Of a DNA stretch of 5,032 bases, positions 1 to 5,032 are shown piece after piece. The notes under the pieces are model-generated. The model was not told the DNA's origin. It searched no databases and worked only from the letters and a program-made list of their open reading frames with translations. The position numbers and the translations under genes are program-made. Within the stretch, counting starts at the first letter, position 1. Every line of letters starts with the position of its first letter. This DNA comes from a virus: the IMG/VR virus record IMGVR_UViG_3300045988_000158, positions 1 to 5,032 of that record. One strand, given 5' to 3'.

Positions 1-55
1 AGGAGTGGTACGTATGTCTAATAAAACTACTATGATTCTCACTTTCATTGTCACC
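1..55. repeat. Terminal direct repeat, copy 1 (circular-genome closure overlap)
   Basis: Bases 1-55 (aggagtggtacgtatgtctaataaaactactatgattctcactttcattgtcacc) are identical to 4978-5032. This implies a 4977-nt circular unit. Confidence 0.95.
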
Positions 56-253
56 GTTGTTGTCCCGTTCATTCAGGAAGTTGTAGATTTAATTGAAGCT
101 CTGAAAGGTCGTTCTACTCCATCTACCCAGCTTGTCAGTAAAGTTGCGTCCGACTTTTCGCATGATGTTGACAAGCTTGTTGAGCCAGTTGGTAATAAGA
201 ACGATTCTAAAAAAACTAGCCGTTTTTTCGGTTCTTGGAGGGATGCTAAGTGA
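14..253 (+). CDS. Small protein (79 aa) with an N-terminal hydrophobic/TM segment; function unknown; candidate membrane or lysis protein
   Basis: AGGAG at 1-5 lies 8 nt before ATG 14, so the track start GTG 5 is less likely. The N-terminus MSNKTTMILTFIVTVVVPFI is hydrophobic and contains a Pro; the rest is hydrophilic. By hand count about half of third codon positions are T, as in the recognisable genes. The stop TGA 251-253 overlaps the next start (GTGA). Confidence 0.7.
   Translation: MSNKTTMILTFIVTVVVPFIQEVVDLIEALKGRSTPSTQLVSKVASDFSHDVDKLVEPVGNKNDSKKTSRFFGSWRDAK
168..198 (+). promoter_or_regulatory. Weak promoter-like site (TTGACA, 19-nt spacer, TGgTAATAA)
   Basis: TTGACA at 168-173. TG at 190-191 precedes TAATAA at 193-198. 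The 19-nt spacer is longer than optimal, and the site lies inside the small-ORF coding sequence, upstream of the J-like gene. Confidence 0.25.
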
Positions 254-360
254 AACGTCGAAAATTATCTAAGCGTGGTTCTCGCCGTCTCTTTCGGCGC
301 ACCTCCAAATCTCGCCGTAGAAATTTCAAGAGAGTAGGACGAGGTGGATTTAGGATTTGA
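250..360 (+). CDS. Arginine-rich small DNA-binding/packaging protein (phiX174 J-like; gokushovirus ORF8/VP8-like), 36 aa
   Basis: Not in the ORF track. GTG 250 is preceded by GGAGG (237-241) with an 8-nt spacer. Translation: (M)KRRKLSKRGSRRLFRRTSKSRRRNFKRVGRGGFRI. It has 13 R and 5 K in 36 residues and no acidic residues. The position between VP2 and VP4 fits gokushovirus order. The start overlaps the upstream stop (GTGA). Confidence 0.8.
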   Translation: MKRRKLSKRGSRRLFRRTSKSRRRNFKRVGRGGFRI

Positions 361-385
361 CATTCTGACTTAATCCTGATACAAT
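357..385 (+). promoter_or_regulatory. Near-consensus sigma70-type promoter with extended -10, upstream of VP4
   Basis: -35 TTGACA at 357-362, 17-nt spacer, TG at 377-378, -10 TACAAT at 380-385. The predicted transcript start is near 390-392, just before the VP4 SD. The -35 overlaps the J-like stop codon. Confidence 0.65.
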
Positions 386-402
386 CGGTACAGGTGATTA
401 AT

Positions 403-1314
403 ATGGTATGTTATAATCCTATTCTTATGCTCCCAGTCGAGGGAGCAATCACAAAAAACGGAAAACAACATTATAGTTTCTACGGCAGCCTTAGTTCTCA
501 CCCTGAACTTGCTAATGATAGCCGTTTCATTCGCTGTTCTTGCAAGCAGTGCATCGGTTGTCGGCTTGAAAACTCTCGTCAATGGGCTGTCAGAGCTGTT
601 CACGAAGCCCGTACTTCGTCTTCAGCTTATTTTGTTACCTGTACGTTCGACGATTATCATTTGCCATCCGATAGAAGTTTGAGCAAAAAATTTCATCAGA
701 CTTTCATGAAAAATCTTCGCCGTGAGTATGGCAGTGGTATTCGCTTTCTCGGCTGCGGTGAATATGGTGAACTTCATGCTCGTCCCCATTATCATTATAT
801 ATTGTTTAATATTGATTTCAGCGACAAAGTTTTTCGGTTCAGAACAGACGGTTATAACACTTATACTTCTGCTCGGTTTTCTAAGATCTGGAAATACGGT
901 ATGCACCTTATTGGGGAGTTTAGCTTTGACGCTGCTGCCTATGTCGCGCGCTACATAGTGAAGAAGCAGACTGGTAGTAATGCTGCTGCTCACTATAATG
1001 GCCGTACGCCTGAGTTTATGCTAGCTTCTAATCGTCCCGGTATAGGCGGAAAATGGCTCGAAGAGCATGGTGAAGAGTGTTATGCTAATGATTTCGTTGT
1101 CGTCAATGGTAAGAAGATGCGTCCTCCTCGTTATTACGATAAGAAGTTCGATGAAACGCATCCTCACTGGATGGAATACATTCGCAATAACCGCATTGAG
1201 AAGATGCTTCATAATTTGGAAAACAATACTTATGAGCGTCTTATTGACCGCTGCCGTGCTCAGGAGGGCAAATATAAACATTTTCTTGGCAGAAGGCTTG
1301 ACAAAGTATTGTGA
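403..1314 (+). CDS. VP4: Replication initiator protein VP4 (HUH rolling-circle endonuclease), 303 aa
   Basis: AGGTGA at 392-397 lies 5 nt before ATG 403; an in-frame GTG at 394 sits inside the SD. RCR motif 1 YFVTCTF is at 628-648. The HUH motif HYHYILF is at 787-807. The double-tyrosine motif YVARYIVKK is at 940-966 (compare phiX174 gpA YVAKY). A Cys cluster CSCKQCIGC lies near the N-terminus. The N-terminus MVCYNP is typical of VP4. Confidence 0.95.
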   Translation: MVCYNPILMLPVEGAITKNGKQHYSFYGSLSSHPELANDSRFIRCSCKQCIGCRLENSRQWAVRAVHEARTSSSAYFVTCTFDDYHLPSDRSLSKKFHQTFMKNLRREYGSGIRFLGCGEYGELHARPHYHYILFNIDFSDKVFRFRTDGYNTYTSARFSKIWKYGMHLIGEFSFDAAAYVARYIVKKQTGSNAAAHYNGRTPEFMLASNRPGIGGKWLEEHGEECYANDFVVVNGKKMRPPRYYDKKFDETHPHWMEYIRNNRIEKMLHNLENNTYERLIDRCRAQEGKYKHFLGRRLDKVL

Positions 1315-1326
1315 CTGTGTTATCAT
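1298..1326 (+). promoter_or_regulatory. Near-consensus sigma70-type promoter with extended -10, upstream of the 79-aa ORF and VP5
   Basis: -35 TTGACA at 1298-1303 (inside the VP4 3' end), 17-nt spacer, TG at 1318-1319, -10 TATCAT at 1321-1326. The predicted transcript start is near 1333. Confidence 0.6.
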
Positions 1327-1344
1327 TAAGTCAGAAACGAGGTG

Positions 1345-1584
1345 ATGCTTATCAGCGAATTCGAAGCTGTTAATAATTTCTGTACGAAGCGTAATATTTC
1401 TTTCAGTTACTCTTTTCGTGGTAGTAAATATGCCGCTTACCGGCTGAAACCTGATGATTCCAGAGTTATTCGCCTTGATAATGACTATTATGTCATATCA
1501 GCTACGTTATATCTCATGATTCGTAGGTATCTAGTTGCATTTAGAAAAGGAGATGGTTCTGCTGAGACTCTATTCCATTTATGA
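1345..1584 (+). CDS. Hypothetical basic protein, 79 aa, no recognisable family
   Basis: Open frame between VP4 and VP5. By hand count about half of third positions are T, like the bona fide genes. It lies downstream of the 1298-1326 promoter. The start is uncertain because GAGGTGA (1339-1345) overlaps ATG 1345. It overlaps the VP5-like gene by 32 nt. Confidence 0.55.
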   Translation: MLISEFEAVNNFCTKRNISFSYSFRGSKYAAYRLKPDDSRVIRLDNDYYVISATLYLMIRRYLVAFRKGDGSAETLFHL

Positions 1585-1840
1585 CTCGAAGGCTGAACAA
1601 TTCAGCCCTCCACAGGTTTATCACAATGACATGCTTGCGCTGCGAGCTTTCGAAGGTTTAGTTAACGATGATAAGACGCTTATTAATAGCTATCCTGAAG
1701 ATTTCAGTCTTCATTATGTCGGTAACCTTGGCGATTCTGATGGCCGTTATTGTATTGAAAGTTCTGACGAATCCCGCGTTCCTATACTTATTGGTCGCGC
1801 CATAGATTACGTGAAGGATATTGACAACGATCCTACTTAA
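1553..1840 (+). CDS. VP5: Gokushovirus VP5-like non-structural protein (about 92-95 aa)
   Basis: The N-terminal LYSIYDSKAEQFSPPQ...NDMLALRAF and later PEDFSLHYVGNLGDSDGRY resemble the conserved small VP5/ORF5 family found next to VP4 in gokushoviruses (recognised from memory). The start is ambiguous: ATG 1553 abuts AAGGAG (1547-1552), while in-frame CTG 1562 lies 9 nt after it. Confidence 0.75.
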   Translation: MVLLRLYSIYDSKAEQFSPPQVYHNDMLALRAFEGLVNDDKTLINSYPEDFSLHYVGNLGDSDGRYCIESSDESRVPILIGRAIDYVKDIDNDPT

Positions 1841-1849
1841 TGATAATCT
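1821..1849 (+). promoter_or_regulatory. Promoter-like site with the same layout as the other two (weaker -10)
   Basis: -35 TTGACA at 1821-1826, 17-nt spacer, TG at 1841-1842, -10 TAATCT at 1844-1849. It overlaps the VP5 3' end and stop (TAA 1838-1840). Confidence 0.4.
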
Positions 1850-1870
1850 AATATAGAGCGTATCAGAATA

Positions 1871-1901
1871 AGGACGGTCTCGTGAGAGATCGTCCTTTTT
1901 C
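1871..1901 (+). terminator. Rho-independent terminator
   Basis: Stem AGGACGGTCTC (1871-1881) pairs with GAGATCGTCCT (1886-1896), giving 11 bp including one G:T. The loop is GTGA (GNRA type) and is followed by TTTTTCT. Confidence 0.8.
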
Positions 1902-1933
1902 TGTGCGCCACGCCCGCCGCGTCTAGGCGCGTA
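1902..1933 (+). other. GC-rich hairpin element directly after the terminator
   Basis: The tract tgtgcgccacgcccgccgcgtctaggcgcgta is far more GC-rich than its surroundings. GCGCC (1905-1909) pairs with GGCGC (1926-1930). An inner stem ACGC (1910-1913) pairs with GCGT (1919-1922), with a 3-nt bulge. The element ends 3 nt before the VP3 SD. Confidence 0.5.
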
Positions 1934-1950
1934 TGAAAGGAGGTGAAACT

Positions 1951-2433
1951 ATGAAGTTTAGAACAGCTTACGACCCCGTAGAAGAGCATGACCACTGCGG
2001 CATTGAGTTCACTATGCCCTCCCTCGCCGTCCAGGACGAAAAAGATGAAACTGATATCAATTATATCGTCAATAAGTACGCTGACGGTCAGAAAGGCATA
2101 GCCACTCTGGATCTCGGCGATAGTTCGCAGTATGCTTATCTCCAGTTTGGAGATGCAACACTTCCCGGTGACTACAGCACTGCGCTAGAGCTTGTGTCCG
2201 GAGTTCGTGAAGAATTCTACAGTCTGCCCGCTTATGTTCGAGCGAAATTCGGTCATGATCCCATGAATTTAATCAGCCAATTAAACAACCCTGAAACGCT
2301 CGAATATCTCCAACGAGAAGGTCTGTATGGTAGCAATTATACCTCTGATAAACCACAACAGTCCATGAGCAATGAACAAATACAAGAAAAAAGTAACACT
2401 TTAGAACATAATAATGAAAAAATACAAAAATAG
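1951..2433 (+). CDS. VP3: Internal scaffolding protein VP3, 160 aa
   Basis: The full SD AAGGAGGTGA (1937-1946) lies 4 nt before ATG 1951; the track start ATG 1933 lacks an SD. The N-terminus MKFRTAYD, the motif PSLAVQDEKDETDINYIVNKY and the stretch FYSLPAYVRAKFGHDP...PE...GL match the gokushovirus/chlamydiaphage scaffold pattern. Confidence 0.85.
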   Translation: MKFRTAYDPVEEHDHCGIEFTMPSLAVQDEKDETDINYIVNKYADGQKGIATLDLGDSSQYAYLQFGDATLPGDYSTALELVSGVREEFYSLPAYVRAKFGHDPMNLISQLNNPETLEYLQREGLYGSNYTSDKPQQSMSNEQIQEKSNTLEHNNEKIQK

Positions 2434-2482
2434 GCGTCACCGAAGCCAGTTACTTACTTGATGCAACTGGCGTAGGTGACGC
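2434..2482 (+). other. Bipartite stem-loop in the VP3-VP1 intergenic region (function unknown)
   Basis: GCGTCACC (2434-2441) pairs with GGTGACGC (2475-2482). GCCAGTT (2445-2451) pairs with AACTGGC (2465-2471). There is a 3x3 internal loop and a 13-nt loop, acttacttgatgc. No T-tract follows on the + strand; a T-rich run follows on the - strand. Confidence 0.6.
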
Positions 2483-2494
2483 ATAAATAAACTA

Positions 2495-2544
2495 AAACCT
2501 AAGAATGATTTTCTTTAGGATAATTCTTAGGTTTACACTAAGAA
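2495..2544 (+). repeat. Cluster of four alternating CTAAGAA / TTCTT(T)AG segments, including a perfect 12-bp inverted repeat
   Basis: aaacctaagaat (2495-2506) is the exact reverse complement of attcttaggttt (2523-2534). ttctttagg (2511-2519) is a near copy of the right arm. ctaagaa recurs at 2538-2544 and overlaps the 5' edge of the VP1 SD. Confidence 0.7.
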
Positions 2545-2553
2545 GGTGATTAA

Positions 2554-4278
2554 TTGGCTCGTAATATTAGAGTTAGAGGTCATCGCTTCAGCGATGCTCC
2601 TGCAATGTATATGCGGCGGACGAAGTTCGACCGCTCGCATGTTTATAAGACGACTTTCAACTCAGGCAAGCTCATACCTGTGTTCGTCGACGAAGTACTG
2701 CCTGGCGATACTACTCGTGTGTCCGTCAATTACTTCGCTCGCCTGGCCACCCCGATTAAGCCTATCATGGATAATATCTATCTTGATTGGTTCTTCTTCT
2801 TCGTTCCGAATCGCCTCGTATGGGATCACTGGCAGAATTTCTGCTTCGAACAGGAAGATCCTGATGATAATACTGATTATGTCATCCCTACTGTGACTGC
2901 TGCCGCTAACACTAATAATAATTATGTAGGCTCTCTCTGGGATTATTTCGGCTTACCCGTGAACACGGCTAATAATATAACTGGTGTTAGCGCTCTTCCA
3001 TTCCGCGCTGTCTATCTAATCTGGAATGAATGGTTTAGGGACGAAAATCTCCAGAAATCGGTCAAGATCCAGAAAGGCGACGCGAACGAAATATTGGATT
3101 CTTCTCGCGCTTCCGATCAACCTTCTTGGTTGTTCAGTTCAGGTACTACTATAGTATCTGGTCATGCTTGTCCGCCTCGCGGCAAGCGTCATGATTACTT
3201 CACTTCGGCACTTCCTTGGACACAGAAAGGACCCGGTGTATCTATAGGCCTTGCCGGTACTGCTACCTTAGTCGACCCTTCGCCTGTTCCAGGCTACTTC
3301 GTCCAGCAGTCTAATAATAGCCTAGGCGCTGCCCAGCTTCAGAAAGATGGTGGTGTGCACGAGGTCTTCACTGGTAATGGTTCGTTGAGTTACCAGAATG
3401 GTGGTTATTCCACTTCCATAGTTGGCCATTCCATCAACGGATCAGGAGTAATCACCGCTACGGCTCAACCTGGTTCTTCATGGCTTTCTAAGTCTGCTTA
3501 CGCCGACCTGGATTCCTCTAGCATCTTCACCATCAACAGTCTTCGTACGGCCTTCCAGATGCAGAAGTTCTACGAGCGCCTTGCTCGCGGTGGTAGTCGG
3601 TATACTGAAGTGCTTCGCTCTTTCTTCGGCGTTGTCTCTCCGGATGCTCGTCTTCAGCGTCCTGAGTTCCTCGGCTCATTCACGAAGATGGTTAATGTCA
3701 ATCCAATAGCTCAGACTTCCGCAACCGACAATACCTCGCCTCAAGGCAATCTCTCTGCTTATGGCGTTACTGCGTCTAGATTCCATGGATTCACGAAATC
3801 TTTCGTCGAACATGGTTATATCATAGGCTTCGTCTGTGCTCGTGCCGATCTAACCTATCAGCAGGGCGTCAATAAGATGTGGCTTCGCTCTACGGTCTAT
3901 GACTTCTATTGGCCGACATTCGCCCATCTCGGTGAGCAGGCCATTGAGCTTCGCGAGATCTATGCCCAAGGTACTGCAGCTGATACTACTGTTTTCGGAT
4001 ACCAGGAACGTTATGCCGAATATCGCTATAAGCCTTCTCAGATTACAGGTAAGTTCCGTAGCTCTGTAACTGGTGGCAATCTCGACGTCTGGCATCTTTC
4101 TCAGTTTTTCAGCAATGCTCCTACTCTGAATGAGGAATTCATTACGGAAAATCCGCCAATTAAGCGCATTGTCGCGGTTCAGGACGAACCTGAGTTCTTA
4201 CTCGATATCGGCTTCCGTTACACTACAGTTCGTCCTATGCCTATGTTCGGCACCCCTGGTCTCGTAGATCACTTCTAG
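2554..4278 (+). CDS. VP1: Major capsid protein VP1 (F-like jelly-roll), 574 aa, TTG start
   Basis: HRFSDAP...KFDRSHVYKTTFNSGKLIPVFVDEVLPGDT is the hallmark gokushovirus VP1 N-terminus. Later conserved blocks are RHDYFTSALPW, INSLRTAFQMQKFYERLARGGSRYTEVLRSFFGV and RLQRPEFLG. AAGGTGAT (2543-2550) precedes TTG 2554, and an in-frame TAA lies at 2551-2553. Confidence 0.97.
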   Translation: MARNIRVRGHRFSDAPAMYMRRTKFDRSHVYKTTFNSGKLIPVFVDEVLPGDTTRVSVNYFARLATPIKPIMDNIYLDWFFFFVPNRLVWDHWQNFCFEQEDPDDNTDYVIPTVTAAANTNNNYVGSLWDYFGLPVNTANNITGVSALPFRAVYLIWNEWFRDENLQKSVKIQKGDANEILDSSRASDQPSWLFSSGTTIVSGHACPPRGKRHDYFTSALPWTQKGPGVSIGLAGTATLVDPSPVPGYFVQQSNNSLGAAQLQKDGGVHEVFTGNGSLSYQNGGYSTSIVGHSINGSGVITATAQPGSSWLSKSAYADLDSSSIFTINSLRTAFQMQKFYERLARGGSRYTEVLRSFFGVVSPDARLQRPEFLGSFTKMVNVNPIAQTSATDNTSPQGNLSAYGVTASRFHGFTKSFVEHGYIIGFVCARADLTYQQGVNKMWLRSTVYDFYWPTFAHLGEQAIELREIYAQGTAADTTVFGYQERYAEYRYKPSQITGKFRSSVTGGNLDVWHLSQFFSNAPTLNEEFITENPPIKRIVAVQDEPEFLLDIGFRYTTVRPMPMFGTPGLVDHF

Positions 4279-4292
4279 AAGGAGTTGGTATC

Positions 4293-4979
4293 ATGTCTTG
4301 GTTATCTAATACCTTAGGCAGCGTCGCTGGTTCTGTTCTTGGATCTGTAGTTCAGAATCATTACAATTCTGCTAGTGCAGCACAGGCTAACGCTTGGAAT
4401 ATTGAAAATTATAAACATCGTTATCAATGGGCCGTAGAAGATATGCGTGCCGCTGGTCTGAACCCCATTCTTGCTGCGACTAATGGTATAGGCGGTTCTA
4501 TTTCCGGAGCTTCCGCTGCTTCTGTAGGCATGAGTGATATCGGTTCTACCATGAATTCTGCTAGAGCCGCTAGTGCCGCTGAACGGCAGGCGAAGAACGC
4601 CGAGCATCTCGCGTTATCTCAAATTGATAAAAACGTCGCAGAAGCCGATTCTACGCGTCAGGCGACCCATGGAATAGTTCTAGACAACGGTATTAAGGCT
4701 AACAATTTGAACCTCGCTGAACAAACCTACGAGAAACGTCTCGGCTATGAGCTTCAGCGCATGGACCAGGAGTTGCAGAACTTACGGCTTCAAGGATCTT
4801 ATCTTTCTTCAGGAATACTTTCAAACATTGCTTCAGCTAATCAGTCTAATTCTGCCGCGGGCTTCGCTGCCCAGAATGCCCGTCTTTCAAAGCAGGAAGC
4901 TGATTTCTATGATTCGTTAGGCGTTGGTAATTCAGGCCTTGGTCATATCCTTCGTGGCATTGGCTATATTTTTAAATAG
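4293..4979 (+). CDS. VP2: Minor capsid / DNA pilot protein VP2, 228 aa
   Basis: AAGGAG (4279-4284) lies 8 nt before ATG 4293. The motif NIENYKHRYQWAVEDMRAAGLNPILA is typical of gokushovirus VP2. The middle is Gly/Ser/Ala-rich and the C-terminal half is predicted helical. The stop TAG (4977-4979) overlaps the SD of the small TM ORF across the circular junction. Confidence 0.9.
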   Translation: MSWLSNTLGSVAGSVLGSVVQNHYNSASAAQANAWNIENYKHRYQWAVEDMRAAGLNPILAATNGIGGSISGASAASVGMSDIGSTMNSARAASAAERQAKNAEHLALSQIDKNVAEADSTRQATHGIVLDNGIKANNLNLAEQTYEKRLGYELQRMDQELQNLRLQGSYLSSGILSNIASANQSNSAAGFAAQNARLSKQEADFYDSLGVGNSGLGHILRGIGYIFK

Positions 4980-5032
4980 GAGTGGTACGTATGTCTAATA
5001 AAACTACTATGATTCTCACTTTCATTGTCACC
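4978..5032. repeat. Terminal direct repeat, copy 2 (includes a duplicated 5' fragment of the small TM ORF, 4991-5032)
   Basis: Identical to bases 1-55. This is not an independent gene copy. Confidence 0.95.

Follow-up and report, generated by a model that had tools for sequence, protein, structure and literature searches.

Several described phage proteins resemble, to different degrees, the product of ORF79, a 79-codon open reading frame (ORF) at the start of a 5,032-nucleotide stretch of viral DNA (IMG/VR record IMGVR_UViG_3300045988_000158, positions 1 to 5,032; hereafter, the window, meaning the whole stretch). The MraY inhibitor E of phiX174 (Bullavirinae), a protein of 91 amino acids (aa) that depends on SlyD, is encoded by a gene overprinted in the +1 frame of the scaffolding gene D; it is made at low level, and its C-terminal domain is replaceable. 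The gene for a second small phiX174 protein, K, shares sequence with A, B, and C. In other phages, small Sie or Imm proteins anchored in the membrane block DNA delivery; among tailed phages, such superinfection-exclusion proteins include T4 Imm, HK97 gp15, and lactococcal Sie2009. Finally, the single-gene lysis (Sgl) proteins of ssRNA phages, including LysM, Sgl-PP7, and 33 new Sgls, form a class defined by lysis phenotype, for which candidates have been filtered by a length of at least 25 codons, a Shine–Dalgarno (SD) sequence, and a hydrophobic or transmembrane helix (Chamakura et al. 2020, PMC7693330).

For gokushoviruses, no lysis gene is known or assigned, a point on which the literature (PMC7062461) agrees with an earlier note on this DNA, and our literature searches returned no paper assigning such a gene or describing the ORF79 family. 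The window contains a single gokushovirus genome, a circle of 4,977 nt whose first 55 nt are repeated at the end. The earlier note, made from the window, had proposed ORF79 as a candidate single-gene lysis or membrane effector with an architecture resembling that of phiX174 E. Judged from its sequence, conservation, and context, ORF79 is the best visible candidate for the missing lysis gene of this phage, a testable candidate rather than a discovery.

ORF79 Is a Conserved and Selected Gene

ORF79 (14–253, plus strand) runs from an ATG at position 14 to a TGA at 251–253 and encodes 79 aa plus stop, MSNKTTMILTFIVTVVVPFIQEVVDLIEALKGRSTPSTQLVSKVASDFSHDVDKLVEPVGNKNDSKKTSRFFGSWRDAK. An AGGAG on the same strand (1–5) precedes the ATG by 8 nt; owing to the 55-nt repeat at the ends of the window, this SD sequence recurs at 4978–4982, where it overlaps the VP2 stop codon (TAG, 4977–4979). 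At every family locus inspected, the ORF79 homolog lies directly after VP2 and is preceded by an SD sequence of the GGAG type (GGAG, GGAGG, or GAGG, 6–10 nt before the start). Half of the third codon positions of ORF79 are T (50%), similar to the values for VP4 (47%), VP5 (49%), and VP2 (45%). On the 3' side, the GTG start codon (250–252) of the VP8/J-like gene overlaps the ORF79 stop codon as GTGA, in place of which close relatives have ATGA, and a GGAGG at 237–241 (plus strand), the SD sequence of the VP8/J-like gene, falls within ORF79 codons W75–R76. The overlap at 250–253 suggests translational coupling between the two genes. The earlier note's description of a 79-aa ORF with a well-spaced SD sequence, gene-like T-rich third positions, and a stop/start overlap with the J-like gene is thus borne out.

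ORF79 matches PHROG 23638 over its full length (E 4.3e-44, residues 1–79 on profile positions 1–79 of 79) and, by this match, belongs to that small and otherwise uncharacterized family. It is 82% identical to ARQ16008.1, a "hypothetical protein" of Human gut gokushovirus SH-CHD4 encoded at the same genome position; other GenBank relatives either give the homolog this same label or leave it without annotation. A single-sequence search of 5.8 billion proteins yielded 493 clusters at 90% identity; the best 120 of these hold proteins of 77–82 aa, and most of the longer contigs carrying them are about 5 kb. A profile search raised the family to 654 clusters at 90% identity, and a profile built from divergent pig, monkey, and mink lineages retrieved further members of 84–100 aa. 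When 1.84 billion representatives were searched exhaustively with a hidden Markov model, no more than 29 clusters at 50% identity came back, nearly all consisting of small family proteins or frame-shifted fragments; a 688-aa match at E 3.5e-4 proved spurious, and no cluster in this search connected the ORF79 family to anything known.

Conservation extends to close relatives in IMG/VR, defined by a VP1 identity of 75% or more: of 28 whose sequence includes the region, 27 carry an intact ORF79. The remaining one has a single frameshift near the 3' end, on a partial contig, and another contig ends within the gene. Absence or disruption in close relatives, which the earlier note had named as grounds for abandoning its proposal, is therefore confined to one partial-contig frameshift.

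The ratio of nonsynonymous to synonymous differences per site (pN/pS) was 0.29 for the whole gene among 12 GenBank genomes and 0.18 among 23 genomes. Within the former set, residues 1–31 gave 0.10 and the linker (residues 32–67) 0.56. For comparison, the ratio was 0.12 for VP3, 0.10 for VP8, and 0.48 for orf80, an unannotated ORF described below. ORF79 is under purifying selection that is strongest on the helix and comparable to that on VP3 and VP8. Synonymous differences are plentiful across the invariant N-terminus, so the constraint there is on the protein. Over codons 68–79, where the VP8/J-like gene has its SD sequence and start codon, pS is only 0.086, indicating DNA-level constraint in this segment.

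That ORF79 might be a chance ORF or annotation artifact is hardly credible. The lack of an annotation in several GenBank relatives would fit such an explanation, but the conservation data already refute it: 654 homologous clusters, the frame intact in all but one of the close relatives, a conserved SD sequence, and a pN/pS of 0.18–0.29, the N-terminus staying invariant while synonymous changes abound. ORF79 is a genuine gene that is conserved, under selection, and restricted to one group of gut gokushoviruses; its family, which has no known relatives, is confined to gokushovirus contigs of about 5 kb.

A Near-Invariant Helix and a C-Terminal Motif

The N-terminal part of the protein is dominated by an apolar core, TTMILTFIVTVVVPFI (codons 5–20; 26–73, plus strand), a putative membrane-spanning or signal-anchor segment of 16 residues. 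It is the only long uncharged run of ORF79 and includes Pro18 (CCG, 65–67). In all five family lineages examined, the run occupies exactly residues 5–20, bordered by K4 (63 of the 64 N-terminal variants have K there and the other has R) and, at the far end, by Q/R21–E/D22. Pro18-Phe19 (CCG TTC, 65–70, plus strand) is invariant in the 64 distinct N-terminal variants. Across lineages, I8, L9, F11, P18, F19, and D25 are invariant and I27 nearly so, even though the capsid proteins of these lineages are only 52–57% identical to that of the window. Invariance beyond what hydrophobicity requires, maintained across lineages with divergent capsids, suggests that the helix recognizes a particular protein and is more than a generic anchor, and we infer that ORF79 is a small bitopic membrane protein acting through such a partner.

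The apolar core continues into QEVVDLIEALKGR (codons 21–33; 74–112, plus strand), an acidic amphipathic extension of the same helix with a hydrophobic moment (muH) of 0.35–0.41. AlphaFold2, run with the family alignment, predicted one confident helix spanning residues 3–33, with a block predicted local distance difference test score (pLDDT) of 85–94; a second helix (residues 38–55) was predicted with low confidence (pLDDT 48–57), the C-terminus was disordered, and the mean pLDDT was 67. Nearly every position from 4 to 27 is conserved, and conservation is found on all faces of the helix. A single conserved helical face, as in E, found no support, as a clean 100-degree periodicity is lacking.

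Following the helix is a variable, charged, Ser/Thr-rich linker (codons 34–68; 113–217, plus strand) that contains the low-confidence helix and whose length differs by lineage, giving proteins of 79–100 aa. It leads to a C-terminal S-R-F-F (codons 69–72; 218–229, plus strand), in which S69, R70, and F71 are invariant in alignment A3; the motif in that alignment reads [WFYT]SRF[LFI] and is followed by a short polar or basic tail. Two remote family members found later read RRF at this site. The SRF motif is kept even in lineages (L003, L007) where no gene overlaps or follows, and the constraint on it therefore concerns the protein.

Whether the apolar core spans a membrane was judged from several measures. 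Eleven of its 16 residues, read from the sequence, are beta-branched, a composition that would suit a helix in a membrane but hardly one in solution. Averaged over 19 residues, Kyte-Doolittle hydropathy reaches 2.07 and exceeds the classic threshold of 1.6. The Wimley-White octanol value is −6.2 kcal/mol, compared with −17.3 kcal/mol for phiX174 E, although this scale is not very specific, since an arginine-containing segment of orf80 scores −6.8. A crude Hessa sum for the best 19-mer gives +3.9 kcal/mol for ORF79 and −3.4 kcal/mol for phiX174 E. The first two scales favor insertion and the third is borderline, so that membrane insertion is plausible but borderline. Flanking charges are small, with 0 to +1 before the run and, in four of the five lineages, −1 in the 15 residues that follow it, a pattern that weakly leans to an N-in/C-out orientation. 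A cleavable Sec signal peptide was rejected: the AlphaFold2 helix is continuous through the sole candidate cleavage site (I-E-A, residue 29), where most members have A or S but 14 of the 64 N-terminal variants have M and P0268 has D. Of the N-terminal transmembrane helix with Pro18 described in the earlier note, the hydrophobic run and the proline, which is invariant, have stood up, whereas the shortness of the 16-residue core leaves its transmembrane status borderline.

Comparison with Known Lysis Proteins

ORF79 and phiX174 E are both small microvirus proteins (79 and 91 aa, respectively) from genomes without an endolysin, and both have an N-terminal hydrophobic helix with a conserved proline, albeit a weaker one in ORF79. 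The differences are more extensive. In contrast to the overprinted E gene, ORF79 stands alone between VP2 and VP8 and overlaps its neighbors only at its SD sequence and at the stop/start codons. Its apolar run comprises 16 residues, compared to 24 in E. The net charge after this run is +1 (0 to +3 across the family) rather than +11, and that of the first 15 residues −1 rather than +5; accordingly, the charges weakly indicate N-in/C-out for ORF79, whereas E is N-out/C-in. The ORF79 tail also has an invariant motif, SRF[LFIW], unlike that of E. As the earlier note had stated, there is no sequence similarity to E: Pfam gave no Microvir_lysis (PF04517) match, and hhalign of the family profile returned a probability of 0.25% over six columns. 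The likeness in layout that the note had seen does not hold beyond the surface, given a gene that is not overprinted, a neutral tail, a reversed charge bias, and an invariant C-terminal motif. Classing ORF79 as E-like would therefore be wrong, and the most that might be said is that it works in the manner of an Sgl.

With phiX174 K, ORF79 has in common that it is a small, non-core microvirus protein with a hydrophobic N-terminal part. By the same measure, no apolar run of K exceeds six residues, its Wimley-White value is +2.8, ORF79 does not share its overlap with other genes, and hhalign of the ORF79 family against K gave a probability of 0.8%.

ORF79 broadly fits the candidate definition used for Sgls. 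Its 79 codons and the AGGAG 8 nt upstream lie within the length and SD limits; for the transmembrane helix, the Kyte-Doolittle (2.07) and Wimley-White (−6.2) values and the confident AlphaFold2 helix (residues 3–33) are favorable and the Hessa sum is borderline. Sgls, however, are recognized by their phenotype, and ORF79 is known here from sequence. It also differs from them in not being embedded in another gene, and most Sgls are narrowly distributed, whereas ORF79 spans lineages whose capsids are about 52–57% identical.

A Candidate for the Missing Lysis Gene

Our best single guess is that ORF79 is a single-gene lysis protein, to which we assign a probability of roughly 0.35. No other ORF of the genome has a good SD sequence and a hydrophobic helix and is also independently conserved. 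Pfam and PHROG scans of the window's eight ORFs revealed no peptidase, lysozyme, or endolysin domain. No obvious enzyme was found in 80 related loci either, where the unassigned ORFs, read by eye, resembled divergent core genes or were of the orf80 type. The holin of a holin–endolysin cassette was rejected as a role, the genome offering no partner muralytic enzyme.

Genomic context agrees with a late function. A sigma-70-like promoter match (TTGACA-17-TACAAT with TG; 357–385, plus strand; 11/12) lies between VP8 and VP4, placing ORF79 at the distal end of a VP1-VP2-ORF79-VP8 structural block; promoter assignments here are consensus matches only, and on these matches ORF79 is probably co-expressed with the structural genes, as would fit such a function. 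Sister clades that share this gene order have, between VP2 and VP8, small hydrophobic or amphipathic ORFs unrelated in sequence. Recurrent but patchy occupancy of this slot by membrane-active-looking peptides would fit lysis-gene turnover as in ssRNA phages.

A mechanism can be proposed on this basis. ORF79 would be made from the distal end of the structural block, from its own strong SD sequence and with translational coupling to VP8. The first half of the helix (residues 5–20) would lie in the cytoplasmic membrane, with the acidic second half (E22, D25, E28) emerging from it. The target of the near-invariant helix would be a conserved membrane protein with which the host makes cell-wall precursors, and binding would provoke autolysis once virions have accumulated. 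The C-terminal SRF[FL] motif may provide a second contact or a regulatory handle. ORF79 would in this way be like phiX174 E only broadly, as a small membrane protein antibiotic. In an extended form of the proposal, which we rate nearly as probable, ORF79 would be the first dedicated gokushovirus lysis gene and found a new "protein antibiotic" family unrelated to E. Its invariant ILTF...PF...D helix would block a conserved step that cell-wall synthesis takes at the membrane, in a gut host using SD sequences and sigma-70-type promoters, and the VP2–VP8 junction would be a general cradle for small, membrane-active, de novo lysis peptides.

A number of observations weigh against a lytic function. 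The 16-residue core and the best 19-mer are far less hydrophobic than their counterparts in phiX174 E, and conservation on all helix faces together with an invariant C-terminal motif is unlike E. The strong SD sequence of ORF79 is atypical, given the low level at which E is made. Hydrophobic +1-frame ORFs in VP5 and VP4 stay open in close relatives and provide alternative lysis candidates. Homologs of ORF79 were absent from Pfam (E ≤ 0.1), NCBIfam, and PADLOC; a PDB sequence-profile search gave no significant match; and Foldseek with the AlphaFold2 model returned 0 matches in the PDB and a best E of 2.1 in BFVD. In several sister clades the VP2–VP8 slot is empty, and in the cultured gokushovirus EC6098, VP8 directly follows VP2 and there is no ORF79 homolog. 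EC6098 lyses Escherichia coli (PMC7062461), and a gene in this slot is therefore not required for gokushovirus lysis in general. Base rates are sobering as well: in a levivirus screen of 158 candidates with an SD sequence and a transmembrane helix, 33 (about 21%) lysed E. coli, and its authors caution against predicting lysis from a transmembrane domain by itself (PMC7693330).

Three other functions were weighed against lysis. A signal-anchored ORF79 with its C-terminal part facing outward could block DNA delivery by an incoming microvirus, perhaps through contact with the conduit formed by the VP2 pilot protein or with its receptor, and so serve in superinfection exclusion or envelope modification. 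With T4 Imm, HK97 gp15, and Sie2009, it would share size, an N-terminal anchor, and possibly an outward C-terminal effector part; the flanking charges weakly favor the required orientation, a conserved motif on a flexible linker suits a partner outside the membrane, and ORF79 adjoins VP2. It is also accessory, being missing from EC6098 and sister clades, and gokushovirus carriage gives superinfection immunity by a mechanism that is not known (PMC7062461). Nevertheless, we consider this role unlikely, as EC6098 shows superinfection immunity without ORF79, and neither an EC6098-type dif motif nor an integrase was found in the genome that would point to lysogeny, where exclusion genes are most useful. 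Homology to these three or other known exclusion proteins was undetectable in PHROGs, Pfam, and PADLOC, and a lytic genome of 5 kb would still need a lysis function, for which no other candidate has an SD sequence. Comparably improbable is that ORF79 is a non-essential, K-like membrane modulator of burst size or timing, with lysis being due to an overprinted +1-frame ORF (e.g., 1668–1805) or a core protein. Of 30 close relatives, 29 retain the ATG of the 45-aa ORF embedded in VP5 and 28 keep it open for about 45 codons, the +1-frame ORFs at 398–679 and 710–955 in VP4 are open in 24/24 and 24/25, respectively, and EC6098 lyses without a slot gene; since phiX174 E is itself overprinted, these embedded ORFs stay formal rivals for lysis. 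Against them, they lack a usable SD sequence (the VP5-embedded ORF has a GAAGG 11 nt from its ATG), they are not preserved in distant ORF79-bearing lineages, and their peptides drift with synonymous changes in VP5, whose pS over the body of the overlap is 0.39–0.43 and shows no drop; the hhalign result for K likewise speaks against a K-like protein. T-rich third positions would, in addition, produce a +1 frame with T-rich second positions and few stops, and hence long hydrophobic ORFs, and the VP5 and VP4 ORFs are probably a by-product of this composition.

Less probable still is an accessory role in morphogenesis or DNA delivery, in which ORF79 would be a partner of VP2, the capsid, or VP8, possibly virion-associated, with SRF[FL] docking on a phage protein. 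Its invariant position between VP2 and VP8, its translational coupling to VP8, and an SD sequence as strong as those of structural genes would suit such a factor, and conservation over the whole helix surface is expected of a buried interface. Sister clades and EC6098, however, assemble infectious virions without it, and a beta-branched apolar helix is hard to fit in a soluble T=1 particle. We know of no such component in the reported gokushovirus capsid structures of EC6098, SpV4, and Ebor. These structures are named in PMC12328618. The VP2 N-terminus, glycine-zipper-like and of the same Gly/Ala/Ser-rich type with or without ORF79, shows therefore no sign of complementation, and the idea that ORF79 supplies a missing membrane segment of VP2 was rejected.

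The VP2–VP8 Slot in Sister Clades

The ORFs that occupy the slot in other gokushoviruses are diverse. A conserved, cationic amphipathic peptide of 32 aa, MIDAILKFVNVLLNSGSAIWEAFKAVKKLFKK, is present in eight loci (L047 and L049–L055). Elsewhere the slot encodes 41 aa with a proline-containing hydrophobic N-terminus and a basic tail (L060), hydrophobic peptides of 33 aa (L058 and L067), or 26 hydrophobic residues with a basic tail (L091). A further slot family (MAKLVAVVVFSLFFDLQVVVSSKER..., in L075, L080, and L093) partly overlaps VP8 in another frame. A distant gokushovirus contig (L079, 927–1187) carries an 86-aa ORF between VP3 and VP8; its start, MLKTILIILPLSIILPGCTVQ, is a lipoprotein-type signal with a lipobox-like LPGC.

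Genome Organization and Other Reading Frames

The nearest GenBank records are gokushoviruses from human, pig, and dog feces, such as "Human gut gokushovirus" and "Gokushovirus WZ-2015a", with 79–86% nucleotide identity over 90–98% of the genome. Directly 3' of ORF79 lies the gene for the Arg-rich DNA-binding VP8/J-like protein (250–360, plus strand; 36 aa; phrog_10695), whose C-terminus (...RGGFRI) resembles that of EC6098 VP8 (...RGGIRL). The gene order continues with VP4 Rep (403–1314), orf80 (1342–1584, plus strand), VP5 (1553–1840), VP3 scaffold (1951–2433), VP1 capsid (2554–4278), and, directly 5' of ORF79, the VP2 DNA pilot protein gene (4293–4979, plus strand; phrog_8693, E 2e-78). In all 80 loci, as in the window (4293–4370), the VP2 N-terminus is Gly/Ala/Ser-rich and glycine-zipper-like (e.g., LGSVAGSVLGSVV), and this segment holds no classical hydrophobic transmembrane helix in any clade.

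A terminator-like 12-bp hairpin with a T-run (1870–1897) directly follows VP5. After it comes an unusually GC-rich stretch, GCGCCACGCCCGCCGCGTCTAGGCGCG, immediately before the SD sequence of VP3 (region 1870–1932). The VP3–VP1 intergenic region (2434–2553) forms two strong ssDNA hairpins (minimum free energy −27.3 kcal/mol, z −7.95 compared with shuffles), one of them a 15-nt inverted repeat at 2495–2534; they are possible origin, packaging, or terminator elements.

Between VP4 and VP5, and overlapping the VP5 start, orf80 comprises 80 codons and has no PHROG, Pfam, or NCBIfam match. Its frame is open in 23 of 25 close relatives, with conserved blocks that read FRGSKYAAYRLKPDD..VIRLD.DYYVIS..LMIRRYL..RKGD..ETLFHL. 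A second sigma-70-like promoter match (1298–1326; 11/12) is located directly upstream, and positional analogues occur in distant lineages (L018, 2314–2667; L017, 444–758).

The ORF embedded in VP5 (1668–1805, plus strand) has an ATG and encodes 45 aa, MIRRLLIAILKISVFIMSVTLAILMAVIVLKVLTNPAFLYLLVAP, with an N-terminal MIRR and a long apolar run; a tblastn screen found the frame intact in 23 of 24 genomes. A +1-frame ORF inside ORF79 itself (105–269/132–272) was set aside as compositional, having stops in 4 of 24 relatives and no SD sequence.

Host and Significance

A single match in a genome collection, a 5.5-kb contig binned into a Clostridiales metagenome-assembled genome (MAG), gives an unreliable hint of the host, because binning of such contigs is error-prone (PMC9239249), and it did not yield a host assignment. 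The presence of an SD sequence on every gene and the sigma-70-like promoter matches would argue only against a Bacteroidota host. A 10.8-kb MAG contig with a family member (L017; NCBI GCA_019971555.1, JAHXDV010000481.1) was considered as a prophage and rejected; two copies of a 5-kb gokushovirus genome are joined in it head to head, as an inverted dimer, through an assembly artifact.

Few groups of ssDNA phages are as common in the human gut as the gokushoviruses. ORF79 offers the one concrete, synthesizable lysis candidate for a clade from which gut metagenomes have yielded more than 600 protein clusters. Even if it were not lytic, it would still be a strongly constrained membrane-type protein that the annotation schemes for microviruses (VP1–5 and VP8) omit. 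If ORF79 does lyse cells, its target would be a new weak spot for antibiotics, and the recurrence of small hydrophobic ORFs between VP2 and VP8 in sister clades would provide a rule for finding lysis genes throughout the subfamily.

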